NCBI GenBank assembly: GCA_041483675.1
Contig: JBGPGE010000008.1
Location: 1,211-65,210, forward strand
Direction: 5' to 3'
DNA length: 64,000 bases
Origin: Candidatus Binatia bacterium
GTDB taxonomy: Bacteria > Desulfobacterota > Binatia > UBA9968
Below, piece by piece: positions 12,372 to 38,658 of this stretch. The notes beneath the pieces were generated by a model that saw only the letters and a program-made list of their open reading frames with translations, was not told the origin of the DNA and made no database searches. The position numbers were made by a program, and so were the translations under genes. Each line of letters opens with the position of its first letter. The first letter of the stretch is position 1.

Positions 12372-12414
12372 ACGCTCGCCTCACGATCTCTTGAGCGACC
12401 GACGCGCCTCCTTC

Positions 12415-13875
12415 CTAGGCGGCGACAGGCAGCGTCAATCCCAACCCTTTGGCTACCCCCATGCCGTACTCCGGGTCGGCCTTGAGAAAGTGCTGAATTT
12501 GCCGTTCCTGAATGTAACGCGGCACCGGCTTCATGGCATTGACGATATTTTCTATGAGCCTTCTCTTCTCATCCGGCTTCATCAGACGAAAGAGGTTTCC
12601 CGCCTGGGTGTAGTCGTCGTTGCCCACGCGATGATCGTAGCGGTCCGCGTCCCCGGAGATTCGCAGCGGCGGCTCCTTCAAGCCGGAATCTTCCATCGGC
12701 CCGTCGAAGCTGTTGGGCTCGTAGTTGACGGCGCCGCCGTAGTTGCCGTCGAAGCGCATCGAGCCGTCGCGGTGATAGGTATGCACCGGACAGCGCGCCT
12801 TGTTGACCGGCAGATCCGCGTAGTTGGCGCCGCCGAGGCGGTACCGATGGGCGTCGGCGTAGGCGAAGATGCGGAACTGGAGCATCTTGTCCGGCGAGAA
12901 GCCGATGCCCGGCACGATGTTGGACGGCTCGAACGCCGCCTGTTCGACCTCCGCGAAATAGTTCTCCGGGTTGCGGTTGAGCTCCATGATCCCCACCTCG
13001 ATCAGCGGGTAGTCCTTGTGCGGCCAGACCTTGGTCAGATCGAAGAGGTTATAGGGAGTTTTCTCGGCCTCCTTCTCGGGCATGATCTGGACGCAGAAAC
13101 GCCATTTGGGGAAATCGCCGCGCTCGATCGCTTGAAACAGATCGCGCTGATGGCTCTCGCGATCGTCGCCGACGATCTTGGCGGCTTCGCCGTCGGTGAG
13201 GCATTGTATGCCCTGCATGGTCTTGAAGTGAAACTTCACCCAGAAGCGCTCGTTTTTCCCGTTGATGAGGCTGTAGGTGTGCGAACCATAGCCGTTGATG
13301 TGCCGGTAGCTCTTGGGGAGGCCACGATCGGAAAACAGAATCGTCACCTGATGGAGACTTTTCGGAGAGAGGGACCAAAAATCCCACATCGCCGTGGGGC
13401 TCCGCAGGTTGGTCTTGGGGTCGCGCTTTTGCGTGCGTATGAAGTCCGGAAACTTATACGGGTCGCGCACGAAAAACACCGGCGTATTGTTGCCGACCAG
13501 GTCCCAGTTGCCTTCCTCGGTGTAGAACTTGAGCGCGAAGCCGCGCACGTCGCGCTCCGCGTCGGCGGCGCCGCGCTCGCCGGCAACGGTCGAGAACCGC
13601 AGGAAGCAGTCGGTCTTCTTGCCGGCTTGCGAAAACACCTTGGCCTTCGAGTATCGGGCGATGTCGTGGGTGATAGTCAACGCGCCGTAGGCGCCGGAGC
13701 CTTTGGCGTGGACTATCCGCTCGGGAATCCGCTCCCGATTGAAGTGCGCGTGCTTCTCAAAGAGCTGCCAGTCCTGGACCAGCAGCGGCCCGCGCGCGCC
13801 TGCCGTCAGTGAATTTTGGTTATCGGTGACCGGGCTCCCGCTCGCCGTGGTCAATGTATTTTGCTTCTTCGCCAT
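12415..13875 (-). CDS. katA: monofunctional heme catalase (small-subunit type)
   Basis: [26 protein letters not shown]-like and RLFSY-like regions. 486 aa. Confidence 0.95.
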
Positions 13876-20320: not shown

Positions 20321-20349
20321 TATAAGTTGATTTTTGAAATTTACGCACT

Positions 20350-21681: not shown

Positions 21682-21743
21682 GCCCGGACCGGAACAGGAA
21701 TCATTCCGTCAGAGCCCGCGTTCGGCCGGCCCGCGCGGCGGGT

Positions 21744-23093: not shown

Positions 23094-23128
23094 TCGGCGC
23101 CTTTTCGATCAACCTGCATTGCTTTGTC

Positions 23129-23158
23129 AGAAGTGCGAATAGCCCTATGGGCACTTCT
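23129..23158. promoter_or_regulatory. inverted repeat AGAAGTGC-N14-GCACTTCT in the leader of the activator gene
   Basis: Perfect 8-bp arms seen directly. 36-65 nt upstream of ATG 23093. Confidence 0.3.
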
Positions 23159-23217
23159 CACACGCGCGAAAAAGTGACGCGGATTAAGCGAACTTCAATA
23201 CTTTGTGTTGTGGTCTT

Positions 23218-23232
23218 GCAAATCTCAGACCA
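23218..23232 (-). promoter_or_regulatory. weaker sigma54-like element (TGGTCTGAGATTTGC)
   Basis: Correct GG-N10-GC spacing and a TTTGC -12 box, but the -24 box is TGGTCT. 124 nt upstream of the activator ATG. Confidence 0.3.
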
Positions 23233-23322
23233 CCCGATGCGTCGCCACTATGCCGGTGAGCGTGATCGGCGGGTTCCGCACAAAGGGATGTTGCAGAAGG
23301 AGCAAAAAGAACACCACCGGGG

Positions 23323-25395
23323 TCAAGCGGTCGGAGCCGAAGGCGTAAGCGGGAACGTGACACGGAACACGGTTCCTTTTCCTCGCTCGCTGGAATAGGA
23401 AACGGCGCCTCCATGGGCTGAAATAATCTGCCGCACGATCACCAGGCCGAGTCCGGTGCCCGATTCCTTCGTCGTGACGAACGGCTCGAAGACATCGACT
23501 CCATCCGGAATCCCGACACCGCTGTCGAAGATTTCCAGGAGCACTTCCCCACCGGCCTCGCGCGCCCGCAGCGTCAACGCGCCGCCGCGCGGCATCGCCT
23601 CGGTGGAATTCTTAATCAAGTTCAAGATCGCTTGCTTGAGCTTGTCGCCGTCAGCTTGCACAAACGGCAGGTCCGGAGGAAAAACCTGCTCGACGCGGAT
23701 GCCCAGGGCGGCGCAACGACTCCTTTCAAGCTCGACGACTTCCTTAGTCACGGCGGCCAAGGAAGTCGGCCGCAAACTGTACTTATCTCGCCGCGAGAGC
23801 GAGCTGAACTCGTGAAGCAGATTGCTGAGGCGGGAAATCTCGTCCGTCAGCCTGCGCAGCGTGGACTTGGCGGGTCCGTCCAAACCTGCTCCCTCACGCC
23901 CCAGATGCCGTTCAAGAAGTTGCGCCGTGAGCGACATGCTGTTGAGCGGGTTGCCGATTTCGTGGGCCAGCTTAGCCGCGGTGGCGCCAATGGCGGCCAA
24001 ACGTTCGCTCTCGATCAATCGATCTTGGAGCTTGGATTTTTCGGAGATGTCGCGAACGAAAGCCGTATAGCGGATATCGCCTTCGGTCGCGACCTCGGTG
24101 ACCGAAAGCTCGGCGGGGAACACATCGCCGTTTTTCCTTCGCGCCGCTACGGTCCGAATGCGCCCGATGACCCGTCGCTCTCCGGTCCGCTCGTAGCGGG
24201 CGATATAGTCCTCATGCTCGCTGGCGTAAGGCTCGGCCATGAGGAGGCCGATTTTCTGTCCCTGCACTTCGCCCGTCGCGTAGCCGAAGATTTTCTCCGC
24301 CGACCGGTTGAACAGCTTGATCCTTCCCGCTCGGTCGATCGAGACCACGCCATCCTGCGTCGCCTCGATGAGAGTCTGCAGCCACGTTTCCGCTCGCGCT
24401 CGCTCGCGGACGTCGATCTCCTCGGCGCGCTTGCGCTCGGTAATGTCCATGGAGATGCCGCAGACGGCGTATAGAACGCCGGCGGAGTTGCGTAGCGGGA
24501 ATTTGTTCGAGCTATAGACGTGAAGGCCGTCGTCCTGCATGACTTGCTCCTCGAACTCAAGGGGAACTCCGGCCTCAATGGTTTTAAGATCGTTCGCCCG
24601 GTACGCATCCGCCAACTCTTTCGGGAAAATGTCGTGATCGGTTTTTCCGGCGATCTGTTCCGCGCTTAAGTGAAACAATTTTTCGTATTGGCGATTCACC
24701 AGCAGGTATCGCCCTTCCCGGTCCTTCAGGTAGATGATCCTCGTCGAGGTGTCGACGATCGCGCGCAGACGTCCCTCGCTCTCGCGCAGCGCGTGCTCGG
24801 CGCGCTTCAGCTCCAAAACCGGGCCTAGGTGACTCGCAATCATCGAGATGGTCTCGATGTGCGCCTTGTCTTCTTTGCGAAGCTCGAAGGCCCAGAACAC
24901 CAGGACAGCCACCACCCGGCCGCCCGCCATGACGGGAATGCCCAGCGAGGTCTTGAGCCCCGCCTCCTTTGCGATCTGGAAGCGGAGGTTTTCCGGAACT
25001 GCTGAAATATCTGCAATCCACTCCGGCTGCCTCGATGCCCAGACCCGGCCGGGGAGACCGATGCCCGGACCAAACGCGACGCCCTCGCTAAACAACCTAA
25101 AAGGACGGAGGCCCTCGCGGGTCGCGCAGCATACCGGCCTGAATTCCAGAATTTCTCCGGCAGAGTTCGGGACCCACGCCTCACAATGATCCCACCCCAA
25201 AGCGGCGCACACTCCCTCCAGCGTCGCCGCCAGGGCGGAATTGAAATCGGCGGCCTCGCTGACCGCTTCAGCGATTTGCAGAAAGAGCTGGAAACGGAAG
25301 TCTTCGCTCTTCGAAGGCGTGGGAGCGAGAGTGGATCTTTTTTTTGGATGGCTATGTCGGGTCGTAAGCATCCAAAACTCAATCCCGGCATTCAC
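23323..25395 (-). CDS. sensor histidine kinase (GAF, two PAS, HisKA, HATPase_c), soluble
   Basis: H-box AKLAHEIGNPLN, N/G boxes (LNLIKNSTEAM, DSGVGIP, GTGLGL), PAS S-box-like segments and an N-terminal GAF-like region. Start may be Met9. Confidence 0.9.
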   Translation of the reverse strand: MNAGIEFWMLTTRHSHPKKRSTLAPTPSKSEDFRFQLFLQIAEAVSEAADFNSALAATLEGVCAALGWDHCEAWVPNSAGEILEFRPVCCATREGLRPFRLFSEGVAFGPGIGLPGRVWASRQPEWIADISAVPENLRFQIAKEAGLKTSLGIPVMAGGRVVAVLVFWAFELRKEDKAHIETISMIASHLGPVLELKRAEHALRESEGRLRAIVDTSTRIIYLKDREGRYLLVNRQYEKLFHLSAEQIAGKTDHDIFPKELADAYRANDLKTIEAGVPLEFEEQVMQDDGLHVYSSNKFPLRNSAGVLYAVCGISMDITERKRAEEIDVRERARAETWLQTLIEATQDGVVSIDRAGRIKLFNRSAEKIFGYATGEVQGQKIGLLMAEPYASEHEDYIARYERTGERRVIGRIRTVAARRKNGDVFPAELSVTEVATEGDIRYTAFVRDISEKSKLQDRLIESERLAAIGATAAKLAHEIGNPLNSMSLTAQLLERHLGREGAGLDGPAKSTLRRLTDEISRLSNLLHEFSSLSRRDKYSLRPTSLAAVTKEVVELERSRCAALGIRVEQVFPPDLPFVQADGDKLKQAILNLIKNSTEAMPRGGALTLRAREAGGEVLLEIFDSGVGIPDGVDVFEPFVTTKESGTGLGLVIVRQIISAHGGAVSYSSERGKGTVFRVTFPLTPSAPTA

Positions 25396-25454
25396 CCTGC
25401 CGGCTTGAGCAAGCCTACTGCGTGTTCCACATGAACGTCAAGAGCCGAGTTGGC

Positions 25455-25500: not shown

Positions 25501-25595
25501 GGAGAAGGAAGAGGCCCGGTGGCTTCGCTGGTCTTCAAAACCAGTCTGGGGGTCGTAAGGTCCCCGGAGGGTTCGACTCCCTCCCTTCTCCGCCA
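25501..25595 (+). tRNA. selC: tRNA-Sec (anticodon TCA), CCA encoded
   Basis: Hand-folded: 8-bp acceptor GGAGAAGG/CCTTCTCC, 6-bp D stem GAGGCC/GGCTTC with 4-nt loop, anticodon stem CTGGT/ACCAG with loop CTTCAAA, long variable arm (GGGGG...TCCCC), T arm GAGGG-TTCGACT-CCCTC, discriminator G, then CCA. The 8/5 geometry is diagnostic of bacterial tRNA-Sec. Confidence 0.88.
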
Positions 25596-26861: not shown

Positions 26862-28226
26862 ATGGCTGACGGCGACCTGAGCGAGCTAGAAGACTACCCT
26901 CCTCCCCCAAAAAGTTGGGAGATCGAAACCGCGCCTAGAGAACGGCTGGAGAAGATCCAGGATCTGGGATTGAAGCGTCTCATCCAAAGGGCCTGGGACC
27001 ACATCCCTTTTTATCGCGAGCGCTGGGAGGCTCAGGGGATTCGCCCCGAGGAGATCCGGGAGCGCGGCGATCTCGGCAAGCTGCCGGTCGTTTGCAAGAG
27101 AGACCTGGAGGCGAGCCTCCTCGCCCATCCACCCTTCGGCAACTACCAGGGGGACTTTCCTGCGGTGCGCATCCAGGCAAGCTCGGGCAGCACGGGCCAG
27201 CCCAAGCCCTTTTTCCATACCATGCATGATTGGCAGGCCATCGCCAATTTTTGGGCCCGACGGCTTCACGCGCAGGGAGTTCAACGGGGAGATATCGTGC
27301 AGGTGGCTTTTGCCTATTCGCTCTTCATCGTTGGCTTCACATCGACCGAGGGAGCCATGAAGTTGGGCGCCCTGGTGGTCCCCACGGGAAGCGGCGCAGT
27401 CACGCCAAGCGAAAGGCAATTGAAAATCGCCCGTGACTGGGGGACGACGGTTCTGGTGGGGACTCCCTCTTACGTTTTGCACCTGGCCGATGTCGCCGAA
27501 AGGATGGGGTTCGACAGGCGAAAGGATTTCCGCTTGCGCTTGACGATCCACACCTCGGAGCCTTTGACCGAGCCGGCGCGCCGCGCCATCGAAGAGAGGT
27601 GGGGGGTCCAGGCTTATGACAATTTCGGCAGTGTCGAGACCGGGGCGCCGACGTTCGAGTGCAGGGAGAAAAACGGCTACCACATCAACGAAGACGGCTA
27701 TATTTTCGAAGTCCTCGATCCTGAAAGCTACGAGCCTGTGGCCCCCGGCCGGGACGGCGTCGTGGTCGTCACCAGCCTGTTCAAAGAGGCCGCGCCGGTC
27801 ATCCGCTACAATCTAGACGACGTCTCCTCTTTGCTGGAGGGCCCCTGCCCCTGCGGCAGGAGCACCAGGAGACTCGCCAAGGTCAAAGGGCGCGTAAGCG
27901 AGATGGTGAAAATCCGCGGCGTGGCCTTCTACCCGACGATGGTCGAGACGGTTCTCGAGAGATTGCCCGAATTGATGCGCGAATATTTCGTCGTCTTGGA
28001 TCGCGTAGGCCAACAGGATACGGTGACGGTGCAGGTGGAGTGCCGGCTGGATGGCGCGGCCGGAGCGTCTATTAAAGAAACGCTGGAACGGGAGTTGAAG
28101 GCGACCACCGGGCTTTCCATGGCGGCCGAACTCCTCGCGCCGGGCGAGCTGGCGCGCTCCATGAAAATCGAGGAGAGGATCAAAGCGAAAAGAATTTGGG
28201 ACAGGAGAGGCAAAAACGATGTCTGA
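26862..28226 (+). CDS. phenylacetate-CoA ligase-like (PaaK / coenzyme F390 synthetase family) adenylating enzyme
   Basis: IPFYRERWEAQGI, SSGSTGQPK P-loop-like motif, GYHINED, KVKGRVSEMVKIRGV. Confidence 0.85.
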   Translation: MADGDLSELEDYPPPPKSWEIETAPRERLEKIQDLGLKRLIQRAWDHIPFYRERWEAQGIRPEEIRERGDLGKLPVVCKRDLEASLLAHPPFGNYQGDFPAVRIQASSGSTGQPKPFFHTMHDWQAIANFWARRLHAQGVQRGDIVQVAFAYSLFIVGFTSTEGAMKLGALVVPTGSGAVTPSERQLKIARDWGTTVLVGTPSYVLHLADVAERMGFDRRKDFRLRLTIHTSEPLTEPARRAIEERWGVQAYDNFGSVETGAPTFECREKNGYHINEDGYIFEVLDPESYEPVAPGRDGVVVVTSLFKEAAPVIRYNLDDVSSLLEGPCPCGRSTRRLAKVKGRVSEMVKIRGVAFYPTMVETVLERLPELMREYFVVLDRVGQQDTVTVQVECRLDGAAGASIKETLERELKATTGLSMAAELLAPGELARSMKIEERIKAKRIWDRRGKNDV

Positions 28227-29649
28227 CGACACCCGGGAATTTATCGAGACCCTGCGCTCCACGGGCGATCTGCTGGAGATCGACGACGAGGTGAGCTGGG
28301 ATCTGGAGTTGGGGGCGATCAGCAGGTTGGCGTGCGAGAAGGACGGGCCGGCCCTCTGGTTCAAGCGCATCGCCGATTACCCGAAGGACGTGTCGGTGTT
28401 CGTCAATCCAATGGCGACGTGGCGTCGTGTCGCCGCGGCCTTCGGGCTCGCGCCGACCTCTTCGGTCAAGGAGATTTATCAGGAGTATGAAAGGCGCGAG
28501 GGGAAGCTGATTCCGCCCGTGACCGTCGATCGCGGTCCGTGCAAGGAAGTGCGATGGGTGGGAGACAAAATCGACCTGTTCAACCTCCCCGCTCCCATGC
28601 TGCACGAAGGAGACGGCGGACGCTATATCGGCACGTGGGATCTCGCGGTCTCTCGCGACCCGAGCACCAACTGGGTCAATTGGGGGATGTATCGTTTTAT
28701 GGTTTACGATTCGACCCATCTGACCGGCTTCCCCCGCCCTACAAGCCATCTGGGGAAGGTGTTCCAAGACCATTATGTTTCCAAGGGAAAAGCCATGCCG
28801 CTGGCGATTGTGATCGGCGCGGACCCGCTCTCTCATTTTGCCGCCGCGGCGACTTACCACCTCGGCGGCGACGAGGCCGCGCTTGCCGGCGGTCTTAAGG
28901 GAAGCCCGGTGGAGTTGATCCGCTGCGAAGCCAGCGATCTTCTCGTGCCGGCAAGGGCAGAGATTGTGATCGAGGGCGAGGCGCTGCCTGACCGAGTGGC
29001 TCTTGAGGGACCTTACGGAGAGTATCCGGGCTACCGAACCGGGGAGATGGGAAACGGCATCCTTGTTCGGGCTACCGCCGTCACGCACCGGCGCAGTCCG
29101 ATTCTTACCGTGGACGCAACCGGGTACAAGGACGACAGCTCCACCATCACCGCCATGTCGGGGGCTGTAGCCATCAAGCGCCGGCTCGAGCGCCACGGCG
29201 TCCCTGTGGTCGATGTCTACCTCCCACCGGAGGGCGCCGTGCACCTGGCGGTGATTGCAGTGCAGTTCGGCGGGAAGGAGATCGCGCGCAAAATCCTCGA
29301 GACCCTCACTTCGAGGCGGGCGCTGCTCTCCAAGATTTTCATGGTCGAGACGGATGTGGATATCTTTGACATCGGCAAGGTGCTCCACGCCTTTTCCACC
29401 AAGTGCCATCCCGCCCACGGCGTGCACGCGGTGCATTACGAAGGCCGGGCCAATACTTTGACTCCGTGTTACAGCCAGGCCGAGCGCGCCGCCCAGAAAG
29501 GGGCGACCGTGCTGTTCGATTGTACCTGGCCCGGAGAGTGGTCGAGACAATGGGAGGTCCCGGTGAAGGCCACCCTGGACTCGATCTTCCCGGAATCGAT
29601 TCGTCAGAAGGCGCTTGAGCGATGGAGGGGCTATGGCTTCAAACAGTAA
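28219..29649 (+). CDS. UbiD-family (prFMN-dependent) decarboxylase/carboxylase
   Basis: N-terminus FIETLRSTGDLLEIDDEVSWDLELGAISR, GGRYIGTW, EGPYGEYPGY motifs. 8-nt overlap with the upstream ligase gene. Confidence 0.88.
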   Translation: MSDDTREFIETLRSTGDLLEIDDEVSWDLELGAISRLACEKDGPALWFKRIADYPKDVSVFVNPMATWRRVAAAFGLAPTSSVKEIYQEYERREGKLIPPVTVDRGPCKEVRWVGDKIDLFNLPAPMLHEGDGGRYIGTWDLAVSRDPSTNWVNWGMYRFMVYDSTHLTGFPRPTSHLGKVFQDHYVSKGKAMPLAIVIGADPLSHFAAAATYHLGGDEAALAGGLKGSPVELIRCEASDLLVPARAEIVIEGEALPDRVALEGPYGEYPGYRTGEMGNGILVRATAVTHRRSPILTVDATGYKDDSSTITAMSGAVAIKRRLERHGVPVVDVYLPPEGAVHLAVIAVQFGGKEIARKILETLTSRRALLSKIFMVETDVDIFDIGKVLHAFSTKCHPAHGVHAVHYEGRANTLTPCYSQAERAAQKGATVLFDCTWPGEWSRQWEVPVKATLDSIFPESIRQKALERWRGYGFKQ

Positions 29650-29962: not shown

Positions 29963-30090
29963 CGAGAAAGTTTTTTAACGAGTGAATAAGCGCGCCGGAT
30001 GTGGATCTTAGCCGGCGCCGTGAAAGGCGCTGCTCGGAGCGGGGGCCTACGACAAACGGAATTGCGCGGAGTCTGTGGGATAGAAGAAAA

Positions 30091-30122
30091 AGAAATGGGG
30101 GCGGTCGGCCGCCCCCATTTCT
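30091..30122 (-). terminator. rho-independent terminator after paralogue A1
   Basis: 14-bp perfect stem agaaatgggggcgg/ccgcccccatttct with a 4-nt loop. T-rich tract follows on the minus strand. Its core is nearly identical to the terminator at 34374-34415. Confidence 0.75.
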
Positions 30123-30143
30123 TCCACTATCGGGGATCACTGA

Positions 30144-30773
30144 TCAGGGAACGGGACAATCACTGATGATTCTGGCAGCCTCGCCCGCTTTCGCAACCTC
30201 TATCGGAACCTCCTGCAGCTCGGTTTCGCGCATATGGAGGAACCTGCGGTTGCTATTATCGCTGGTCTGCGCCACATAATGTGTGAGCCAGCCTTTGGCC
30301 CCGGCCTGAACTCTTCTGGCCGCGTCCACGGTCAGGACCTTTACGGTGAAGTCGTGGCTGTCATAAGCGGCGAACTCCTGGATCAAGTTGACCTCCGCGT
30401 ATTCGTTCCGATCGAGAGATTTAATCACGCATCCAAGCAAGAACGGCTGGCCGTTGGAAGTCGCGGCATAAGCCGCGACATAGGCCGAGAGCGAATTATT
30501 GGTCGGGTTGACCAACCGAACCACGGCCTCGACGGTGTCGGACTCGGCCAAGTTACCCCCGGCGCCATTCGTGAAGCACGCGTTGCCGAAACAGTCATGA
30601 TCCTGGCCGTTCACGGCTCCAATAAGGTAGGCGGACAGGGAGCCGCCTTTTGATGGCAAATTCAACACTGACGAAATGAGCACGGCGCCCATAGCCAGCA
30701 CACCCCCGACAGCAACCGCCGCCAGCGCCTGACTGCGGCCCCATTTTAACGATCTCAAATTAATAAACCTCAT
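30144..30773 (-). CDS. exported 4-Cys protein of unknown family, paralogue A1
   Basis: N-terminal hydrophobic anchor. Motifs GGSLSAYLIG, CFGNAC, RLVNPTNNSL, VQAGAKGWLTHYV, ELQEVPIE, C-terminal Cys. ATG 30773 with an AAGGAG RBS. Confidence 0.75.
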   Translation of the reverse strand: MRFINLRSLKWGRSQALAAVAVGGVLAMGAVLISSVLNLPSKGGSLSAYLIGAVNGQDHDCFGNACFTNGAGGNLAESDTVEAVVRLVNPTNNSLSAYVAAYAATSNGQPFLLGCVIKSLDRNEYAEVNLIQEFAAYDSHDFTVKVLTVDAARRVQAGAKGWLTHYVAQTSDNSNRRFLHMRETELQEVPIEVAKAGEAARIISDCPVP

Positions 30774-30828
30774 GCTTCGTCTCCTTCCCACGTTGAGTCA
30801 AAATTTCATCTTCCCCTCGACGACTATT

Positions 30829-31464
30829 TTAAAGACAGGTATTGGTGATTCTGAGCAGCTCAGCGTTATTATTCGCCTTGAGCGCCTCCGCTGGAACTTC
30901 CTGGAGCCGGCTGGCGCGTGAGAACAGAGCTTGAGTCTGGTCACTGCTCTCGATCACGAAATGGGTCAACGCGCCCTTTAGCCCCGCCTGCACCCTGCTG
31001 AAGTCCGAGTCCAGCACCGTCACGACCTTTACGGCGCCGAACTGTGAATCTCCATTGCCGCCGAGAATATTGTTATTCACGTATACTCGCACCGTTTCGT
31101 TGGTCGACACGGTCCTGGTGGTACAGTCAACGAACGCCCCGCTTATATCGAACAGAGCGATGACGGCGTGCAGAGCCGTCGCTGTCGGGTTGGTCAGGTC
31201 GATGGCCGCGTCCGTCCGGTGGGGCAGGAAACCCTCGCCACCGCCGGTGTCGGCACAGGCTGCACCAATGCAGCTATTACCGAAAGTACTGCGCGTCCTG
31301 AGATCGTAATAGCCCACCAGGTAGGGGCTCAGCGTCCCGCCATAGGAGGGGAAAACAAATACTTTTGTATAGATAAATCCTACGGCGAGCGTGCTCGCAA
31401 CCACTACGCTTAGCAGCATTATCAGCCTCGGCTGCCGTTTTAAAAAGTTTGCCAAAGATGCCAT
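30829..31464 (-). CDS. exported 4-Cys protein of unknown family, paralogue B1
   Basis: Anchor plus motifs GGTLSPYLVG, CIGAAC, IDLTNPTATAL, VQAGLKGALTHFV, RLQEVPAE, C-terminal Cys. GAGGAGGGG RBS. Confidence 0.75.
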   Translation of the reverse strand: MASLANFLKRQPRLIMLLSVVVASTLAVGFIYTKVFVFPSYGGTLSPYLVGYYDLRTRSTFGNSCIGAACADTGGGEGFLPHRTDAAIDLTNPTATALHAVIALFDISGAFVDCTTRTVSTNETVRVYVNNNILGGNGDSQFGAVKVVTVLDSDFSRVQAGLKGALTHFVIESSDQTQALFSRASRLQEVPAEALKANNNAELLRITNTCL

Positions 31465-31527
31465 AACTTGTCCCCTCCTCGTAATCGTCAGATTGGCTCT
31501 CCGTGAGCGGGAGCTTTGAATGTGCGC

Positions 31528-31556
31528 AACATACCTCGTGAGAAAGCGGCTGTCAA
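31528..31556 (-). promoter_or_regulatory. possible sigma70 promoter for B1-A1 (TTGACA-N17-TATGTT)
   Basis: Read on the minus strand in the 190-nt gap upstream of B1. A related TTGACA...TATGTT string with a shorter spacer lies upstream of B2 (35850-35873). Confidence 0.4.
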
Positions 31557-31655
31557 GACAAATTTTTAGCGCCTCGGCTATTCAGTATTGCGCCTTCTGG
31601 CCTCTGCGCAGCCGACACCGAACGCCCCCTCTTTTAGCCCACCGATCCTCGTATG

Positions 31656-34271
31656 TCAATCGGCGTTTGGCCCCGGGATCGGCCCGGGCGCAGGTCCGCC
31701 TTGCTCCAGCAGACGGGGAAGATATTTTACCACGCCCCTTGGAGCAGCCGCCGCCGCCTTCTTCTCCTCCTCCAGCGCCAGCTCTTTCTTCCCGGTCTGG
31801 CGGTAGATCTGCACCAGGGCGTAATGAATGCTCCAGGACTTATAGCCCTGCGCCTCAAGCGTCTGGATCTGTTTGAGCGCCTCCTGCGGCTGACCCTTCG
31901 CCAGATAAGCCAGGGCCGCCTGGACCGGCGGAGAGGCGCGGTTCGGGCTCATCTCGGCCGCCTCTTTATAGTAGCGGATCGCCGCGTCAAGGCGCTCTTG
32001 GTTTCCCCCCCGCACGCCCCAATGATGATTGAGACGGCCCAGGAGGTACGGGTAACGCCCGTCCAGGGGATCGAGGCGGCGAGCCTCCAGGAACGACATC
32101 TCAGCCAGGCCCATCGCGCCTTCACCCCCCAGTTGCAACAATGTGTCGAACCGGATCGTGCGGGCGAGCGAGAGATCCGGCTTAAAGCCCTCGGGCGGCT
32201 TGATCTCCGGCTTGTCGTTGAAAAGGACAAGCCCGATCTGCCCCAGAAACCGGCCGAGCGCAATCTGGTAGGAGCTTTCATTAGGCTCCAAGAGAGCGGC
32301 CTGCTGAAAAGCAAAAACAGACTCTTTCGGGTCGGTCTGGCCGAGGGTGAAGATCGTGTCGGCCGCCTGCGCCCGGAAGCTCAGGCGGTAGATCAGGAGC
32401 ACCGAAACCCCGAGGACGAGGGTGTACACGCCGAAATCGCGCCACCTCGCCCGACGATCGCCGTGGAGCGGGCCGAGATCGAGAGCCAGCAGGACTATCC
32501 CGGCGATCATCCCGGCCCAGGCGACGAGCAAGGAGACGTAGGTTCCGGTCAGGGAGAATGCGATTCTCAACCCCACGATCACTATCGCCAGGACGGCCAG
32601 CGTCGCGTAGAGCGCGTAACGGACCATCCGGCTTTTCCAGGGCGAGCGGTCCGCCGCCGGCTCCTCGGCTTCGGCGGCGGGCGCGGGTCGAGCCAAAAAA
32701 ACCGCCAGGGCAAGGAACAGCCAGAAGAGAAAACGGGTGGAGGTGACTCCAAGGCCGAACTGAAGCTCGACCAGATGGCCGGCCATCGCCGCCAGCAAGG
32801 CGATGAGGTAGAGCTGTCGGCTCGGGCTTTCCTCTTGCCAAAGCGCCTTAAGCCCAAGACGGGCGAAAGCGGCCAGCAGCAGCAGGAACGCGGCCAAACC
32901 GAGGAGGCCGCTCTCAGCCAGATGGTTCAACAGATCGTTATGAGCGCGGTCCTTGACGCGGGTCCACGGCTCTTCCCGTGCCACAAGCTGTCGATCCAGA
33001 GTCCTCTCGACCACCAACCCCAGGGTTTCCGGCCCATAACCGATCAGAGGCCGGATGGCTGCAAGCGAATCAGCCGGACGGAGCTCCGGGTTGGTCCATA
33101 CAAGACGCCAGACGCTCGGCCAGAGGCGCAGGCGGAAGCTCACGCTCCCCGCCATGGTCGAGAGGCTGCCCAACCGGGCAAAAACGGGATGGCGCTTGAG
33201 CGTTTCCAGCGGCCCCTGGGGAATATTCAGCAAGCCCACAAAGAGAACCGCCAGGACAGCGCCGGCCACGACACCGGTAAGCAGACGGCGCATCCGTTGG
33301 CGCAACGCGACCAAAACCCCGAAAGCCGCGGCCCCGGCGAGCCCGCCCAACCAAGCCCCGCGCGCCTGGGTTGCGAGCAGCGCCCCCATCTGAAGGCACA
33401 GGAGGACGGTATATCCGGCTACCTCGATCAACGGATTAACCTCGGCCTTAAGGCGGAGCGTCCAGATCAACAGGCCCACATAAGCGGTAAGGACCGAAAG
33501 GTTCATCCACCAGAGCTGCGGGTGGGTGAGGCCGTACAGCAGAAAGACGGTCATAGCGATATTTTGCGCCACGAGACTTACAGCCGCGAGTAGGCCTTTA
33601 CCGTTTCCGGAGCGATCGCCCGACCCTTCCTCACGCAAATAGTCCACAGCCGTCGCAAACAGTTTGGCCACCGTCCAGGGCAGCGCCATAATCAAGTAGG
33701 CGCCGAGAAAAAGGTGGTGGCCCAGCGTCGACCGGGCCGCCCACTGAAGGGTGTCCGACGGGCCGGCGTAGACGGCAGGGTCCAGCCCGATTTGCTGCGC
33801 GAGAGCATACAGGCAGACCGGGATGCTGGAGAGGACGACCACGGCGACAAGGCGGTCGAATTGCTCCCGGCGCTTAAGATTTGCGACCAACAGACAGAAA
33901 AAGGCCGCATAGGAGAGCGTCGTATAGGCCCCCTGCAACCGTTCAAACGAGCCGTAAAAGCTCAAGCCCGGCGCCACCGAGGTAAGCGAAGTGAGGACAA
34001 CTACGACGACGTAGCCCGCGACGGGGAGCGCCAGGGGTTTCTTCCAAAACGAAGCGAGGGGATGTTCGATGGAGTCATCGTCCCTCTCCTCCCAGAGCTT
34101 GACCACCCACGCGGCCACCATGAGCGGCACGACGACGCGCAAAAAATGCGCCTTGGCGACGGCATAGCCCTGGCTGCTGGCGCCGCTCACGTAGAGCTGT
34201 ACCAGGGCCGCGGCGACGAGCCAGCCGGCCTCTATAAAGCGGGCGCAAAAGTTGCTGAGCTTACTCATCAT
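31656..34271 (-). CDS. O-antigen ligase/polymerase-like (Wzy_C) polytopic membrane protein with C-terminal TPR region
   Basis: Many TMHs, Wzy_C-type motif RAHNDLLNHLAESGLLGLAAFLLLL, C-terminal TPR-like repeats. Start at the ATGATG at 34271/34268 behind a GGAGGAGAGG RBS. Confidence 0.8.
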   Translation of the reverse strand: MMSKLSNFCARFIEAGWLVAAALVQLYVSGASSQGYAVAKAHFLRVVVPLMVAAWVVKLWEERDDDSIEHPLASFWKKPLALPVAGYVVVVVLTSLTSVAPGLSFYGSFERLQGAYTTLSYAAFFCLLVANLKRREQFDRLVAVVVLSSIPVCLYALAQQIGLDPAVYAGPSDTLQWAARSTLGHHLFLGAYLIMALPWTVAKLFATAVDYLREEGSGDRSGNGKGLLAAVSLVAQNIAMTVFLLYGLTHPQLWWMNLSVLTAYVGLLIWTLRLKAEVNPLIEVAGYTVLLCLQMGALLATQARGAWLGGLAGAAAFGVLVALRQRMRRLLTGVVAGAVLAVLFVGLLNIPQGPLETLKRHPVFARLGSLSTMAGSVSFRLRLWPSVWRLVWTNPELRPADSLAAIRPLIGYGPETLGLVVERTLDRQLVAREEPWTRVKDRAHNDLLNHLAESGLLGLAAFLLLLAAFARLGLKALWQEESPSRQLYLIALLAAMAGHLVELQFGLGVTSTRFLFWLFLALAVFLARPAPAAEAEEPAADRSPWKSRMVRYALYATLAVLAIVIVGLRIAFSLTGTYVSLLVAWAGMIAGIVLLALDLGPLHGDRRARWRDFGVYTLVLGVSVLLIYRLSFRAQAADTIFTLGQTDPKESVFAFQQAALLEPNESSYQIALGRFLGQIGLVLFNDKPEIKPPEGFKPDLSLARTIRFDTLLQLGGEGAMGLAEMSFLEARRLDPLDGRYPYLLGRLNHHWGVRGGNQERLDAAIRYYKEAAEMSPNRASPPVQAALAYLAKGQPQEALKQIQTLEAQGYKSWSIHYALVQIYRQTGKKELALEEEKKAAAAAPRGVVKYLPRLLEQGGPAPGPIPGPNAD

Positions 34272-34373
34272 CCTCTCCTCCGCCCGGCCCGGCGAAACGG
34301 CGACCGGCAAAACGGGGAACTAAAGGCTTAACGATCGGCAAAGGTATCGGGGGGAACTTCTTAGTTGGAGGTT

Positions 34374-34415
34374 AAAAAAAATTGGGGGCGGTGGTTCTCA
34401 CCGCCCCCAATTTTT
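34374..34415 (-). terminator. rho-independent (bidirectional) terminator after paralogue A2
   Basis: 13-bp stem attgggggcggtg/caccgcccccaat with a 5-nt loop, flanked by A7 and T5 runs. Confidence 0.8.
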
Positions 34416-34435
34416 CCGCTAACGGCATCGTTCAA

Positions 34436-35080
34436 TTACGGGCAACCATGATTGACGCTATCACTTATAATTTTGGACGCCTCGCCGCCCGCCCTCGCGA
34501 TTTCGATCGGGACTTCCTGCATCTCCGTCTCGCGCATGTGGACGAAGTTCCGAGTCCCATTGCTTTCTAGGGTCTCCGCTTGAAAATGGGTGAGCCAGCC
34601 CTTGAGGCCCGCCAGCACGCTGGTGGGAGTCTGCGCGTTCACGCTCACAACCTTGATGGTATCTATGCTGTCGGTAAAACCCTCGCCCATGTCGTCGCGC
34701 AAGTAAACCTGGGCGTAGTTATTTCTGCCCAGGGTTTTCGTCTTACAGGCCAAGAAATTGCCGGCGTTGTAAACCGCGATATAGGCTTTCAACGAGGTAT
34801 TCGTGGGGTTGACCAAGCGAATCGCGATATCCGCGCTGTCGCTGCCAGGGAGGGAGTTGCCTATGCATGCCGTCCCCCAGCAGGAGTGGTTCTGGGCGTG
34901 CACGCCGCCGACAAGATAGGCCGCCAGCGATCCGCCGCTCGATTTAAAGTTCAAAATGTTAGGAAAAGTCGGAACGATAACAACGGTAAGCCCCATCGCC
35001 AGCACGCTCACGGCGGCAACCGCCGCAAGCGCCAGTCTTCGATTCCCCGTTATGATGGATTTTAGATCTAAAAGTTTCAT
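34436..35080 (-). CDS. exported 4-Cys protein of unknown family, paralogue A2
   Basis: Anchor plus GGSLAAYLVG, CWGTAC, IRLVNPTNTSL, LAGLKGWLTHFQ, EMQEVPIE, C-terminal Cys. GGAAGGAGAG RBS. Confidence 0.75.
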   Translation of the reverse strand: MKLLDLKSIITGNRRLALAAVAAVSVLAMGLTVVIVPTFPNILNFKSSGGSLAAYLVGGVHAQNHSCWGTACIGNSLPGSDSADIAIRLVNPTNTSLKAYIAVYNAGNFLACKTKTLGRNNYAQVYLRDDMGEGFTDSIDTIKVVSVNAQTPTSVLAGLKGWLTHFQAETLESNGTRNFVHMRETEMQEVPIEIARAGGEASKIISDSVNHGCP

Positions 35081-35129
35081 GCTCGCTCTCCTTCCGTGTC
35101 GACCGGAAATTTTTGTTCCAAAACGATCA

Positions 35130-35786
35130 TCAGGGCATCAAATTAGCCAGACACTGGGGCCGGGCTATATTAAAAAGCTCGGCATCCGAAGCCGCCTTGA
35201 GCGCCTCTACGGGAACCTGCTGCAGTTGGCTCTGACGGGAAAAAATGAAGCTCTGGCCGCCGCCATCCTGCCTCACATAGTGGGTGATCACCCCCTTGGC
35301 GCCCGCCTGCACTTTGCTCGGAACGGCAGGATCCTCGTCCAGGAAAGTCACGACTTTTATCACGCCGACCGCGCGGTCCGTCCCATCCGCCCCAAAACCG
35401 ATAATATCGTCATGAACAAATACCACATCCGTGTCGTTGTTGCCGAGGAATGTATTCGTACAATCTATGAAGTCCCCGTTCGCCTTGAATACCGAGATTA
35501 CTGCGATCAGATCCGTGTTCGTTGGATTGGTCAGCTCAATGCCCACGTCGGTCCGGTTGGCTACAAGATCGTCGGCGCAAGCGTCGCCGTAGCAGTCGTT
35601 TCCATGAGTACTATTATTGATCGTCCTGAGATCGAAATAGCCCACCAGATAGGGGCTTAAAGAGCCGCCGCTGCTCGGGAAGACAAAAATCTTCGTGTAG
35701 GTAAAGCCGAGGGCGAGCGCGCTCGCCACAGCCACACCTAAAAGAAGCAGCCCTGTTTTTCGCTTGGCAAAATCTAGAAACGCCAT
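35130..35786 (-). CDS. exported 4-Cys protein of unknown family, paralogue B2
   Basis: Start at ATG 35786 (GAGGAGG RBS). Motifs GGSLSPYLVG, CYGDAC, IELTNPTNTDL, VQAGAKGVITHYV, QLQQVPVE, C-terminal Cys. Confidence 0.75.
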   Translation of the reverse strand: MAFLDFAKRKTGLLLLGVAVASALALGFTYTKIFVFPSSGGSLSPYLVGYFDLRTINNSTHGNDCYGDACADDLVANRTDVGIELTNPTNTDLIAVISVFKANGDFIDCTNTFLGNNDTDVVFVHDDIIGFGADGTDRAVGVIKVVTFLDEDPAVPSKVQAGAKGVITHYVRQDGGGQSFIFSRQSQLQQVPVEALKAASDAELFNIARPQCLANLMP

Positions 35787-35903
35787 AATATGGTTCCTCC
35801 TCGCGACTGAAAATCGCCTCTGCGAACCCATTAAAATAACCTTTGAGTAACATAGGGGCATGATCCCTGTCAAGCACAAAATTATAAAAAAACGGCCCCC
35901 CCC

Positions 35904-36236
35904 TTACCCTTTCCCCCCCAACTGCCGCTTCCATCCCAGAGTCCGGGCCTTGGCCCCGATATGTTCCGCCTCGGCGATCATTCCCTTGCGCTGGTAGAAG
36001 ATCGACAGGCTGGTGTAGGCCAGCTCGTCTTCGGGGCTGACCTCGATCAGCCTTTTGCCCAGCTCGATCGCCTCGTCCAGCCGATCCTGGCGGGCCAGGA
36101 CCATCGCGAGGGCCTGAAGGGCGTCGGCGTAGCCGGGATCTTCCGCCAGCGCCGCGCGGTAGGCGGCGACGGCCTCGTCGAGCTTTTCGTCGGCGAACAG
36201 CTCCATCCCCCGGTTGTAGTGGTCTTCTTTCGGCAT
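35904..36236 (-). CDS. small TPR repeat protein (110 aa)
   Basis: TPR-like repeats (GMELFADEKLDEAVAAYRAALAEDPGYADALQALAMVLARQDRLDEAIELGKRLIEVSP). Start at ATG 36236. Confidence 0.7.
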   Translation of the reverse strand: MPKEDHYNRGMELFADEKLDEAVAAYRAALAEDPGYADALQALAMVLARQDRLDEAIELGKRLIEVSPEDELAYTSLSIFYQRKGMIAEAEHIGAKARTLGWKRQLGGKG

Positions 36237-36298
36237 GAGCGATTCCCCGCAGAGAAAGCGGCCGGCCGGTCGAAGAGAGCGGGTGGCGGCTTTCCGAG

Positions 36299-37405
36299 TC
36301 AAGAGTCGGTTCGCGCCGGCGCTTCCTCGCCGCGGCACTGCTGCAGGATGATCTTTCTGAGCCGGTCGGGGTCGATCGGCTTCTTAAAGATCACGCACTG
36401 AAGGCCCTCCAGGCAGCTCCGCTTGATAATGTGGTCCTTGTCATAGTGAAAAGCGGTCATGAGGATCACCGGCAGCCCGGGGCGCGTCTCCTTGACCGCA
36501 TGGTAGAGCGCGTAGCCGTCCATATCCGGCATGACGACGTCGCTCAAGATCAGGTCGAACTCCGACTTCTCCAGAACCTCCATCGCCTTGTTCCCCGACG
36601 GCGCCGTCGCCACGCGGCAACGCTCCTTTTGCAGCAGCTCCTGAAGCGACCGGCAGATCCCCAGGTCGTCGTCCACGACCAGCACCCGCAACCCGGCCAA
36701 CCCGCCTTTGCCGTCGGGCGCGGCGGCTAGTGCCTGCGACGCCCCTTTCGCGCCGAGATCGGTCATCATGCGGCCGCCGTGATATTCCTTGGTCCCGTAC
36801 TCTCCGCCTTCGGCCATCTCGCCGATGCGACGCGTGATCTCCTGGATTTTTTTTACCTGCTCCCCGACCGACTCCAACCGCTCCGATTCCACGAGAAAAT
36901 CTTCGTCGCCGGCGACGCGGCTTACGTAGCGCTGGAGCAGATCGATCTGGTTCACCAGCACTTCCAGCGAATTGTTGATCTCGTGCGACAGGCCGACGGC
37001 GATCTCGCCCAGCGTCACCAGCCGGTCGCGCCGCCGGATCTCCCGGATGTCTTTCGCGAATCCGATCGATCCGCTCTCGTTGCCCCGCTCGTCGTAGGTG
37101 ATCGACGCGGAGATCGCGACCGGAATCGGCTCGCCCCGCCTGGTCTTGAACGTGGTCTCGAAGTTTCTAACCTTCCCCTTCTCCCCTTCGGCCCCGCGCC
37201 GCATGGCCGCCATGACTCTGCGCGCCTCTTCTCGCGTGGGATAGATCTCCAAAACGCTTTTGCCCAACACCTCTTCCGACGTAAATCCCAGGTTCTGCCG
37301 GGCGCCGTCGTTGTAAAAGGTGATGACGCCCGCTTTGTTGACCGCGATGATGATATCGGGGCAGCTTTCGACGAGCTTGAGGAAGTACTCCGGGGATAGT
37401 GACAT
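36299..37405 (-). CDS. PAS-DHp(HisKA)-REC protein lacking an HATPase_c catalytic domain
   Basis: PAS (IIAVNKAGVITFYNDGARQNLGFTSEEVLGKSVLEIY), H-box GLSHEINNSL, then directly a receiver (RVLVVDDD...LILSDVVMPDMDG...KKP). No N/G1/F/G2 boxes are visible between the DHp and REC domains. Confidence 0.8.
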   Translation of the reverse strand: MSLSPEYFLKLVESCPDIIIAVNKAGVITFYNDGARQNLGFTSEEVLGKSVLEIYPTREEARRVMAAMRRGAEGEKGKVRNFETTFKTRRGEPIPVAISASITYDERGNESGSIGFAKDIREIRRRDRLVTLGEIAVGLSHEINNSLEVLVNQIDLLQRYVSRVAGDEDFLVESERLESVGEQVKKIQEITRRIGEMAEGGEYGTKEYHGGRMMTDLGAKGASQALAAAPDGKGGLAGLRVLVVDDDLGICRSLQELLQKERCRVATAPSGNKAMEVLEKSEFDLILSDVVMPDMDGYALYHAVKETRPGLPVILMTAFHYDKDHIIKRSCLEGLQCVIFKKPIDPDRLRKIILQQCRGEEAPARTDS

Positions 37406-37513
37406 AACGCAGCCGACTTAATTAACAATCATAAGTCGTTCCCCGCGCCGATTGCAAGCCCTCGCGGTTGATCCCGGAGGGGACCGCCCGCGACAACTGA
37501 CCTTTTCCTCCGC

Positions 37514-38554
37514 CTACTGCCTTCTGCCTACTGCCTCTCTGTAGACTCTCTCATACCCGTCCAACATCCGCTCCACCGAAAATTTTTCCTCTACCCACGC
37601 GCGGCAGCGCCGGCGATCGAGCTTGTCGATCGTGCGCAAGGCGTCGATCATCTCGTCTTCAGTTCGCGTGAGATAACCCGTCTCGCCGTCTTCGATCAGC
37701 TCGGGCATCGAGCCTCGCGCATAAGCCAGCACCGGCGCGCCGGCAGCCATCGACTCGACGACCGCCATCCCGAACGGCTCGTCCCACTGAAGCGGGAAGA
37801 GAAAACCTCTGGCGCGGCTCATGACCGCCAGCAGGTCACGGCGCGGCAGCCGCTCGATGTGTTTGATCCTGACGCCGTCGATGTGCGGCTTCACTTCCTT
37901 TTCAAAATAGGCCTCGCTCCATGGAAGATGCGAGGTGACGTGGCCGACGATCAGGAGAGGGACATCGGCTTTTTCAGCGATTGAAATCGCCTCCGCGATC
38001 CCCTTGCCCGGCGTCATCCGCCCGACGATCAGGAAAAACTCCTCCGGCTTTCCGCCGAACGGAATTCGATCGAGATCGACGCCGTTGTAAACCACCGGCA
38101 ACGACTCGTCGCCCAAACTTTTCGCCTGCGCCCGGCTGACGCAGACCGGCCGGCAGTTGCGGAACGTCGCGCGGTAGTAGTCGTGCAATTCCTTTTCGAT
38201 GTAGGCGTAGGTGACGAGGGTCGGCGTTTCGGTGAAGTTCGAGAAGTAGGGCGCGAGGGTCGGCCAGTGGGCATGGATCAGATCGAAGCGGTCCGCCTGG
38301 CGGTAGAGATTGAACGTGTTCCGTGTCTCGAATTCTTTTTCGAGGTAGACTGTGCTCTCAGGATCGTCCAGGCTCGCGACCGGCAGGACCGATTGCACCG
38401 GACAGTCCACTTGGGAATCGCCGGAGGCGAACAGCTCGACCCGATGGCCGCGCCGCGTCAACCCTTGGCAGAGATCGTGGACGATCCATTCCGTCCCGCC
38501 GTGGCTTTTCGGCGGGATCGACAGGTAGACGCTCGATATCTGCGCGATTTTCAT
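37514..38554 (-). CDS. glycosyltransferase family 4 (GT-B fold)
   Basis: MKIAQISSVYLSIPPKSHGGTEWIV N-terminus, and EPFGMAVVESMAAGAPVLA...E motif. Start at ATG 38554. Confidence 0.85.
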   Translation of the reverse strand: MKIAQISSVYLSIPPKSHGGTEWIVHDLCQGLTRRGHRVELFASGDSQVDCPVQSVLPVASLDDPESTVYLEKEFETRNTFNLYRQADRFDLIHAHWPTLAPYFSNFTETPTLVTYAYIEKELHDYYRATFRNCRPVCVSRAQAKSLGDESLPVVYNGVDLDRIPFGGKPEEFFLIVGRMTPGKGIAEAISIAEKADVPLLIVGHVTSHLPWSEAYFEKEVKPHIDGVRIKHIERLPRRDLLAVMSRARGFLFPLQWDEPFGMAVVESMAAGAPVLAYARGSMPELIEDGETGYLTRTEDEMIDALRTIDKLDRRRCRAWVEEKFSVERMLDGYERVYREAVGRRQ

Positions 38555-38658
38555 CGCAGCTAGAAATATTACAGGCGCGGCGAGGCCGCAAGGCACCCTT
38601 TCATAAGGCCGTCGAATCGCGTAGAATTGTGTTCACTCCTCGTTAGTTTCTCCGATTT

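Follow-up and report, generated by a model that had tools for sequence, protein, structure and literature searches.

What are the two pairs of paralogous genes that flank a gene of the Wzy_C family in contig JBGPGE010000008.1 of a Candidatus Binatia bacterium, and does their position next to this gene reflect a common function? We analysed a 64-kb stretch of this contig, called the window below. A preliminary description of its sequence had reported two gene pairs, B2-A2 and B1-A1, encoding exported proteins of an unrecognisable family. The A and B proteins are quite probably exported ASRT-like beta-sandwich proteins encoded as pairs of paralogues. They form a fast-evolving new family, not a new kind of system; the type of domain is already known.

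Paired paralogous genes

The four genes lie on the minus strand, and their open reading frames (ORFs) are found exactly where the preliminary description had placed them:

35130..35786, minus strand: B2, predicted exported ASRT-fold protein of the B subtype, 218 aa (ORF and alignment; 2.5e-75 against the family hidden Markov model (HMM); B clade)
34436..35080, minus strand: A2, predicted exported ASRT-fold protein of the A subtype, 214 aa (ORF, alignment, tree, family HMM)
30829..31464, minus strand: B1, predicted exported ASRT-fold protein of the B subtype, 211 aa (ORF, alignment, tree, family HMM)
30144..30773, minus strand: A1, predicted exported ASRT-fold protein of the A subtype, 209 aa (ORF, alignment; the protein used for AlphaFold)

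All four ATG codons are preceded by strong Shine-Dalgarno sequences (GGAAGGAGA or GAGGAGG). The motifs GG[ST]L[SA]xYL[IV]G, CxGxAC, NPT, VQAGxKG..TH and LQEVPxE and the terminal cysteine, all listed in the preliminary description, are seen in the alignment of the four proteins. It has 44 invariant columns, including GG.L..YL.G, NPT, AG.KG..TH, Q.VP.E and three of the four cysteine columns. Lysine K145 is invariant in the A/B family, and Q156, K160, W162 and H165 are conserved. The identity is 55% for A1/A2 and 36% for A versus B in the four-way alignment, and 52% for A1/A2, 52% for B1/B2 and 32-36% for A versus B in a wider one. These values uphold the proposed division into two subtypes, A1 with A2 and B1 with B2. 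The neighbour-joining tree contains three clades, namely A, B and a third one, represented for example by a Chloroflexota metagenome-assembled genome (MAG).

On every contig long enough to show both genes, B is followed by A approximately 50 nt downstream. There are two such pairs in the window and a tandem pair of third-clade copies in the Chloroflexota genome (locus L009). Since B and A invariably come together in a single unit, a heteromer is plausible. A recent duplication of the B-A unit was rejected: the identity is just 52% for A1/A2 as well as for B1/B2, and A1 has closer matches among foreign sequences, being 71% identical to a protein from another metagenome. Thus the pairs A1-B1 and A2-B2 are old paralogues. 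Within the A clade, A2 diverges most.

The family is rare. A profile search of 5.8 billion proteins produced 27 clusters. When 1.84 billion representatives were searched exhaustively with the HMM, 160 reached E<=1e-3 and just 15 reached E<=1e-30. A pattern scan of 185,579 species genomes yielded three candidate loci, one of them (L010) spurious, and a narrow pattern scan of a metagenome collection yielded six. Of all genomes, the nearest is a MAG that bears the label 'Deltaproteobacteria bacterium RIFCSPLOWO2_12_FULL_60_19' (locus L008). The earlier statement that the proteins belong to no known family agrees with the sequence searches: scans of A1, B1, A2 and B2 against Pfam, NCBIfam, PADLOC and PHROGs gave no real match, a Pfam scan of 68 diverse relatives gave none, and sequence-profile searches of PDB gave only chance matches, such as ribosomal protein S10 via the NPT string. 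No viral structure was matched by Foldseek below E 1e-3. A defence or immunity system was rejected, the PADLOC scan having given no match.

Fold of the A/B domain

The AlphaFold model of full-length A1 (predicted local distance difference test score, pLDDT, 69) shows residues 13-36 as a hydrophobic helix, which is followed by a loop of low confidence and then by a beta-sandwich. Immunoglobulin-like matches obtained with this model (transglutaminase, GH2, ASF1; TM-score <=0.33) were discarded, being superseded by the domain-only model. The latter, covering residues 37-209 of A1 and based on a 68-sequence alignment, has pLDDT 85.8 and predicted TM-score 0.83. It contains eight strands and a C-terminal helix, and here the conserved N-terminal strand belongs to the sandwich. 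The top PDB match of Foldseek is 1NC7 (TM1070), with probability 1.00, E 1.5e-4, TM-score 0.69 on the target and rmsd 4.3 A; the ASRT structures 2II7 and 2II8 are found with probability 0.97-0.99. Therefore at the level of the fold the family is not unrecognisable, contrary to the preliminary description: the models give an ASRT/TM1070-like eight-stranded beta-sandwich.

The ASRAH superfamily is defined by an eight-stranded sandwich, an aromatic residue starting strand 1 and a near-invariant asparagine ending strand 2 (De Souza, Iyer and Aravind 2009, PMC2739507). This asparagine stabilises the tight turn to strand 3, and the aromatic residue of strand 1 is a tryptophan after a polar residue (PMC2739507). 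In the A/B family, N89-P90 does not vary, and T91 and Y49 hardly do (alignments of 27, 68 and 68 sequences). In the A1 models the triple N89-P90-T91 ends strand 2, immediately after the strand 81-88, and hhalign sets N89 against N38 of ASRT. Strand 1 carries the near-invariant Y49 (S/P-Y-L) where ASRAH has tryptophan.

A further link is provided by proteins with DUF5719 repeats. Library-wide, the family profile finds two of them, P0108 and P0139, at E 1.7e-7 and 2.6e-5, respectively. Both match DUF5719 of Pfam (E 4e-11 and 4e-19), and P0108 scores 25.8 bits against Pfam ASRT (PF07100), the cut-off being 25. Comparison of the family with the DUF5719-type repeats of P0108 and P0139 by hhalign yields probability 94% and E 1e-7, the similarity covering strands 2-6. 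Thus the fold and the motifs agree with the definition of the superfamily, and A/B is a probable new branch of ASRT/ASRAH, as far as the structural models go.

The closest known domains are ASRT and TM1070 (Pfam PF07100, formerly DUF1362). They have in common with A/B the eight-stranded sandwich, in which they are the top structural match, an asparagine ending strand 2 before a tight turn, a strand 1 with an aromatic residue (tyrosine in A/B), presence in twos or fours (for A/B, at the level of genes), and a predicted carbohydrate context. However, they are cytoplasmic, solo and homotetrameric proteins of approximately 125 aa with the signature SHEshChhN and without cysteine pairs, whereas A and B are two diverged, exported paralogues with a 25-residue cysteine-containing insert between strands 1 and 2 and a C-terminal helix ending in cysteine. 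The DUF5719 (PF18986) repeat proteins and the secreted ASRAH families resemble A/B in being extracytoplasmic, membrane-tethered or secreted, and in carrying the domain in multiples; the DUF5719 repeats also have the significant profile similarity over strands 2-6. Among the secreted families are actinobacterial lipoproteins with two domains and amidase fusions with four (PMC2739507). In these proteins the repeats reside in one polypeptide with a lipobox or an amidase, whereas A and B are separate products with their own hydrophobic N-termini.

Export and cysteines

Each of A1, B1, A2 and B2 has a hydrophobic N-terminal segment, which by hydropathy is long enough for a signal anchor. At the same time, the N-terminus resembles a signal peptide: a basic start is followed by 10-14 hydrophobic residues and then by a conserved A-L-A, V-L-A or A-W-A site approximately 16 residues before the GG motif. 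In distant relatives the domain comprises approximately 140 residues, beginning a few residues past the cleavage site of a plain Sec signal peptide and ending at the C-terminal cysteine. In some of them it forms the C-terminus of secreted multi-domain proteins with CARDB (or CARDB-like), S8 peptidase or Big_2 domains. The hydrophobic N-termini of all four proteins and the signal peptides of the distant relatives bear out the export assumed in the preliminary description. Proteins P0055, P0057, P0063 and P0065 start straight at the domain (M-x3-5-FPPSGG), without a signal peptide; by their sequences, they may be either cases of mis-called gene starts or cytoplasmic versions of the domain.

The four conserved cysteines described earlier do behave as two pairs, but only one of these pairs, A1 C115 and C206 (the C-terminal cysteine), is family-wide. 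Both residues are present in 56 of the 80 scorable domains, and another 18 have C115 only, with truncated sequences possibly among them. The CxGxAC pair (C61 and C66) lies in a clade-specific insert between strands 1 and 2; here the number of cysteines is 0 or 2 in 178 of the 182 domains. This pattern fits one local and one long-range disulfide.

Several other assignments were considered for the exported proteins and rejected. Type IV and Tad pilins have the wrong leader and the wrong fold: the N-termini are MGFLDFAKQKPRLLLLG... and MKFLKLTSIKPSRG..., without G|FTLIE, and in the model a helix of 24 residues is joined by a linker to the sandwich, instead of a helix of approximately 50 residues packed on a beta-sheet. 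Lipoproteins were dismissed, since there is no lipobox cysteine. N-glycosylation at NPT was excluded as well, because the asparagine, the structural hallmark residue of the fold, is followed by proline at +1. The rules for the N-glycosylation sequon exclude proline in this position.

Promoters, untranslated regions and terminators

Candidate transcription signals surround each pair:

31528..31556, minus strand: sigma-70-like promoter of the B1-A1 unit, TTGACA-17-TATGTT, 10/12 matches
35849..35873, minus strand: promoter-like element of the B2-A2 unit, TTGACA-13-TATGTT, with spacing not canonical for sigma-70
34375..34416, minus strand: intrinsic terminator after A2, with A-tract, TGGGGGCGGTG..CACCGCCCCCA stem and T-tract; -33.7 kcal/mol, z -7.6
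30088..30125, minus strand: intrinsic terminator after A1, with the same stem core as after A2; -32.3 kcal/mol, z -6.45

The TTGACA...TATGTT string noted earlier is found ahead of both B genes, although the spacing is unequal. The 13-nt form is the one kept upstream of B genes in relatives. The 5' untranslated regions (UTRs) of the B genes (31465-31530 and 35787-35848 in the window) share the blocks GGAGAGsCrATyT...ACGAGGAGG, the proteins of these units being only 52-63% identical. A search of the untranslated regions with Rfam at gathering thresholds gave no RNA family. In loci L020 (264-510) and L021 (706-1005) the B gene has two tandem modules of approximately 100 nt upstream of it. Each consists of the conserved block AATCGAsGCGACTTTAmCTCAG...AAACGsTGTCAA and, after it, a promoter-like TTGACA element, as if a promoter or regulatory region had been duplicated.

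The A-tract/TGGGGGCGG-loop-CCGCCCCCA/T-tract hairpin occurs at just the two terminator sites in 64 kb, the chance expectation being 0. Thus the terminator core claimed to be common to both units is real. The same hairpin follows A genes of relatives, for example at 10668-10692 in L008 and at about 1835-1870 in L020, and its 9-bp stem core (TGGGGGCGG / CCGCCCCCA) is identical after every A gene. The terminator stem, together with parts of the promoter and the 5' UTR, is kept across units whose proteins, the A proteins among them, are only approximately 50% identical. With its A-tract and T-tract the terminator looks bidirectional, and the hairpin may also stabilise the 3' end of the mRNA. From these signals we infer that each B-A pair is probably a self-contained unit built for high expression.

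Divergence of the proteins

A and B diverge far faster than the proteins encoded by the neighbouring genes. Between the window and L008, the identity is 93% for ABC-F, 90% for PAS/REC, 89% for Dus, 87% for GT4, 85% for TPR, 85% for Maf and 78% for Wzy_C, as compared to 53-57% for B and 47-55% for A. The third-position GC content (GC3) is 0.65-0.70 in the A/B genes and 0.72-0.86 in the neighbours.

Contigs of near-identical strains share approximately 99.5% DNA identity over 2.3 kb, and the differences are clustered. In the B loop just past CxGxAC, 17 nt and one codon differ within 60 nt (ADNNEDGNPGEAAGIL vs AGQNEDTQRHADRAGIM), and 8-9 nt differ in one A loop (DSWSQGNTFSQN vs DSYSESGSFSQN). A high-GC relative similar to P0026 (L015, about 2700-3441) carries a low-complexity insert, GGGGGGGNGTGNQTGNQTGNQTGG, composed of several N-x-T triplets; the loop concerned is the one in which A proteins differ from strain to strain. 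The loop-focused divergence and GC3, together with the conserved terminator, promoter and UTR, suggest an abundant product with exposed, diversifying loops.

The Wzy_C/TPR gene and other neighbours

The following genes adjoin the B-A pairs:

31656..34268, minus strand: polytopic membrane protein of the Wzy_C family, 870 aa, with C-terminal TPR predicted to be periplasmic (Pfam and hydropathy)
35904..36338, minus strand: small TPR protein without hydrophobic segment, upstream of B2 (115 aa as called in relatives; 85% identical in L008)
36299..37405, minus strand: PAS/DHp-like/REC regulator (Pfam PAS, weak HisKA and REC; 90% identical in L008)
37514..38596, minus strand: GT4 glycosyltransferase (Pfam; tie to the B-A unit weak)

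These identifications, made earlier from the letters, are confirmed by Pfam, the HisKA match being weak. In relatives (L001 5640-7478, L008 5681-7585) an oppositely oriented amino-acid permease/Usp gene, absent from the window (37405-37514), separates GT4 from the PAS/REC regulator, and thus the link between GT4 and the B-A unit is weak.

The Wzy_C domain (PF04932, E 1.3e-13) occupies residues 306-408 of the enzyme, and the TPR resides at the C-terminus of the same protein. Rough hydropathy analysis gives approximately 15 transmembrane segments, an Arg-rich loop (618-624), the last transmembrane segment and the TPR tail, and by this count the tail is predicted to be in the periplasm. The Wzy_C-plus-TPR architecture is widespread (530 hits).

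About three related lineages have a B-A pair immediately upstream of Wzy_C: the window, the L008 group and L020. The ORF that follows the terminator in L020 begins with MGKAAGFCDRFI, matching the N-terminus of Wzy_C orthologues. The upstream neighbour of B-A varies: in the window and L008 it is the TPR gene, in L020 and L021 it encodes an outer-membrane beta-barrel protein, and for B1-A1 it is Wzy_C itself. The second pair, downstream of Wzy_C, was observed in the window only, exactly at the end of its synteny with L008.

Full-length orthologues of the Wzy_C/TPR enzyme with 47-52% identity (L017, L018, L019, L022) are encoded directly downstream of a Bac_transf initiating sugar transferase, and the surroundings of L017-L019, taken together, include genes for GT2, GT4, WecG and sulfotransferases. 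The L019 locus has a gene for a UbiD-family decarboxylase (11030-12245) approximately 7 kb downstream of the Wzy_C orthologue, past the genes for an acyl-AMP ligase, a sulfotransferase, GT2 and WecG. In the window the UbiD gene (28219-29649) also follows Wzy_C, with just B1-A1 and one small ORF in between. This difference in spacing suggests that B1-A1 has been placed where glycan-modification genes once were.

Possible functions of A and B

Our tentative reading, to which we assign a probability of about 40%, is that A and B form exported, paired hetero-oligomers of ASRT-fold domains tied to an envelope glycan, with glycan binding as the most likely mechanism. A1, B1, A2 and B2 would be exported by the Sec pathway, after which they would either remain in the inner membrane by a signal anchor or be cleaved after the conserved A-x-A-like site. 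The extracytoplasmic domain of approximately 140 aa would form the eight-stranded ASRT/TM1070 ('ASRAH') sandwich, the C-terminal helix being tied to it by the predicted C115-C206 disulfide. The small C-x4-C loop between strands 1 and 2 and the variable loops would be further features specific to the family. The TTGACA element, the conserved 5' UTR, the strong ribosome-binding sites and the very strong terminator would ensure high expression of each pair. The products may then assemble as hetero-oligomers, similarly to the dyads and tetrads of other ASRAH domains, and, in the periplasm or at the cell surface, may bind an envelope glycan or organise it, most likely the glycan handled by the adjacent Wzy_C/TPR enzyme. 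The published analysis of the superfamily predicts binding of sugars or small molecules in a cleft at the dimer interface, notes that dyads, tetrads or tetramers are the forms in which ASRAH domains always occur, and reports that glycosyltransferases or a peptidoglycan amidase accompany the extracellular families (PMC2739507).

A number of observations weigh against this reading. Direct comparison of the family with ASRT by hhalign is not significant (probability 0.8%, E 0.07), although equivalent strands do align; the ASRT profile is thin, as the search for ASRT homologues gave only close cyanobacterial orthologues. Thus the assignment to the superfamily rests on the fold, the motifs and the transitive link. 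The second step of this link, between the DUF5719-type repeats and ASRT, is weak (hhalign probability 57%, E 1e-4), and neither A/B nor 68 single-domain relatives match ASRT (PF07100) in Pfam. A/B lack SHEshChhN, the ligand signature of the ASRT type, strand 2 being EAVVRLVNPT, and sugar binding by ASRAH domains is itself a published prediction only (PMC2739507). There is a strong terminator between A2 and Wzy_C. The link to Wzy_C is phylogenetically narrow, confined to one lineage. The family HMMs find no A/B gene in the loci of the Wzy_C/TPR orthologues L017, L018, L019 and L022, and there is no Wzy_C gene in the examined flanking DNA of the A/B relatives L009 (Chloroflexota), L007 (contig) and L016. 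So, the co-occurrence of B-A with Wzy_C anticipated in the preliminary description is seen in about three related lineages, but neither at distant Wzy_C orthologues nor beside A/B relatives in other phyla. Finally, if A and B remain attached to the inner membrane by their anchors, outside selection accounts less easily for the strain-level hypervariability.

The neighbourhood of A/B and Wzy_C may also have no functional meaning. An abundant, fast-evolving, exported A/B unit, encoding for example a structural component of the envelope or surface or a target in an arms race, could simply have been inserted beside Wzy_C. We consider this rather unlikely, although it follows closest behind glycan binding. 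Such an insertion is consistent with the unit having its own promoter, 5' UTR and terminator, better conserved than its coding sequence, with the varying upstream genes (TPR, outer-membrane beta-barrel, Wzy_C), with the location of B1-A1 exactly at the end of the L008 synteny, with the GC3 of A/B below that of the neighbours, and with the broader family having no link to Wzy_C. On the other hand, every unit of the A/B clade with enough flanking sequence adjoins a Wzy_C gene, on either side, and the fold family is predicted to bind sugars and to travel with glycan enzymes (PMC2739507).

If the adjacency is meaningful, A and B could instead be acceptors that are O-glycosylated by the Wzy_C/TPR enzyme, acting as an O-oligosaccharyltransferase similar to PglL/TfpO, with the periplasmic TPR recruiting them. 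There are precedents for such an arrangement. The genes pglL, tfpO and tfpW commonly adjoin their acceptor genes (PMC3643930; bioRxiv 10.1101/2020.04.19.049825); in particular, 21 of 31 pglL homologues adjoin pilin acceptor genes (PMC3643930), and TfpW, encoded directly downstream of its substrate gene pilA, has a periplasmic C-terminal TPR domain (bioRxiv 10.1101/2020.04.19.049825). The pilA-tfpO/pilO, pilA-tfpW and comP-pglL modules resemble the A/B locus in combining a small, abundant, fast-evolving exported disulfide protein with a polytopic enzyme, which is of the Wzy_C type, as here, or, for TfpW, of the GT-C type. However, A and B lack the G|FxxxE leader and the long N-terminal helix packed on a sheet that are seen in pilin acceptors. 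In three lineages B-A and Wzy_C share a strand, with B-A immediately upstream, and the window has its second pair directly downstream; this arrangement agrees with O-glycosylation, and so do the predicted periplasmic location of the TPR tail and the flexible low-confidence loops of A/B, which are rich in Ser, Thr, Asn and Gly and vary between strains; in the relative L015 such a loop carries the NQTGNQTGNQTG insert.

It is opposed by the genomic context of the enzyme orthologues, which adjoin Bac_transf, mostly among further glycosyltransferase genes and without A/B; since these are polysaccharide loci, the ancestral role seems to be the ligation or polymerisation of polysaccharide. In other phyla no Wzy_C gene adjoins the A/B relatives, and the same terminator separates A2 from the enzyme gene. 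Among the scanned ORFs of the 64-kb window there is no flippase and no Bac_transf initiating transferase, GT4 being the only glycosyltransferase nearby. A Pfam search with the enzyme at E<=1 gave just Wzy_C, TPR families and two chance matches, so in contrast to PglL/TfpO no PglL-specific family was reported; Pfam contains a PglL_A model. Two flanking motifs, named PglL_A and PglL_B, separate O-oligosaccharyltransferases from WaaL ligases (PMC3643930). Thus the O-glycosylation idea of the preliminary description is weakened by the narrow synteny and by the polysaccharide-locus orthologues, but not refuted. Protein O-glycosylation of A/B is possible by analogy with the pilin modules, and we hold it slightly less probable than a chance neighbourhood.

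Two further explanations seem improbable to us, each to the same degree. A and B could be accessory subunits that serve the Wzy_C enzyme on the periplasmic side, modulating for example chain length or ligation, with their anchors beside it in the inner membrane. Each protein does have a single N-terminal hydrophobic segment with the domain outside, and the A/B genes flank the enzyme gene. However, such subunits should evolve at approximately the rate of the enzyme, whereas the identities are 47-57% for A/B and 78% for the enzyme; moreover, A/B carry loops hypervariable at the level of strains, orthologous enzymes elsewhere have no A/B, and the expression signals suggest that A/B are far more abundant than the enzyme. 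Alternatively, A and B could be subunits of a new abundant surface assembly (fibre, sheath or lattice) with loops glycosylated by the Wzy_C/TPR enzyme. Here cleavage at A-x-A would leave a conserved amphipathic N-terminal segment (FTYTKVFVF, TFSSVFNF), which is unstructured in the model of the monomer. This segment would pair with the edge of the partner's sandwich, producing an alternating A/B polymer, and the enzyme would act on the strain-variable loops as a TPR-bearing protein O-oligosaccharyltransferase. The host of such an assembly would be an uncultured lineage of groundwater and soil bacteria.

Other features of the window

A selenocysteine tRNA gene with anticodon TCA was found at 25501-25595 on the plus strand (Rfam RF01852, 77 bits), and thus the organism uses selenoproteins. 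Three long ORFs have no Pfam match at E<=1e-5: 12295-13809 (plus strand), 20344-21708 (minus strand) and 58333-59553 (minus strand), with 505, 455 and 407 aa from stop to stop, respectively. The regions 9490-12150 and 21747-25437, both on the minus strand, encode a LonC/LonB-like AAA protease and a GAF-PAS-PAS histidine kinase beside a sigma-54 activator with a receiver domain, respectively. The protease, kinase and activator look like ordinary neighbours with no evident relation to A/B.

Implications

The value of these observations lies mainly in annotation and in the building of hypotheses; the organism is uncultured, and they have no bearing on a long-standing open question. The absence of the A/B family from Pfam and NCBIfam is an annotation gap, the family comprising approximately 160 representative clusters among 1.84 billion proteins. 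As a branch of ASRT/ASRAH, A/B would extend the superfamily by separate A and B products with their own export signals, a C-terminal helix predicted to be tied by a disulfide, and strain-variable loops. The A/B locus also offers an alternative testable idea, namely that TPR-bearing Wzy_C enzymes glycosylate proteins. The function of the superfamily has so far been only predicted, and the A/B genes next to Wzy_C/TPR would provide a concrete test of glycan binding by extracytoplasmic ASRAH domains.

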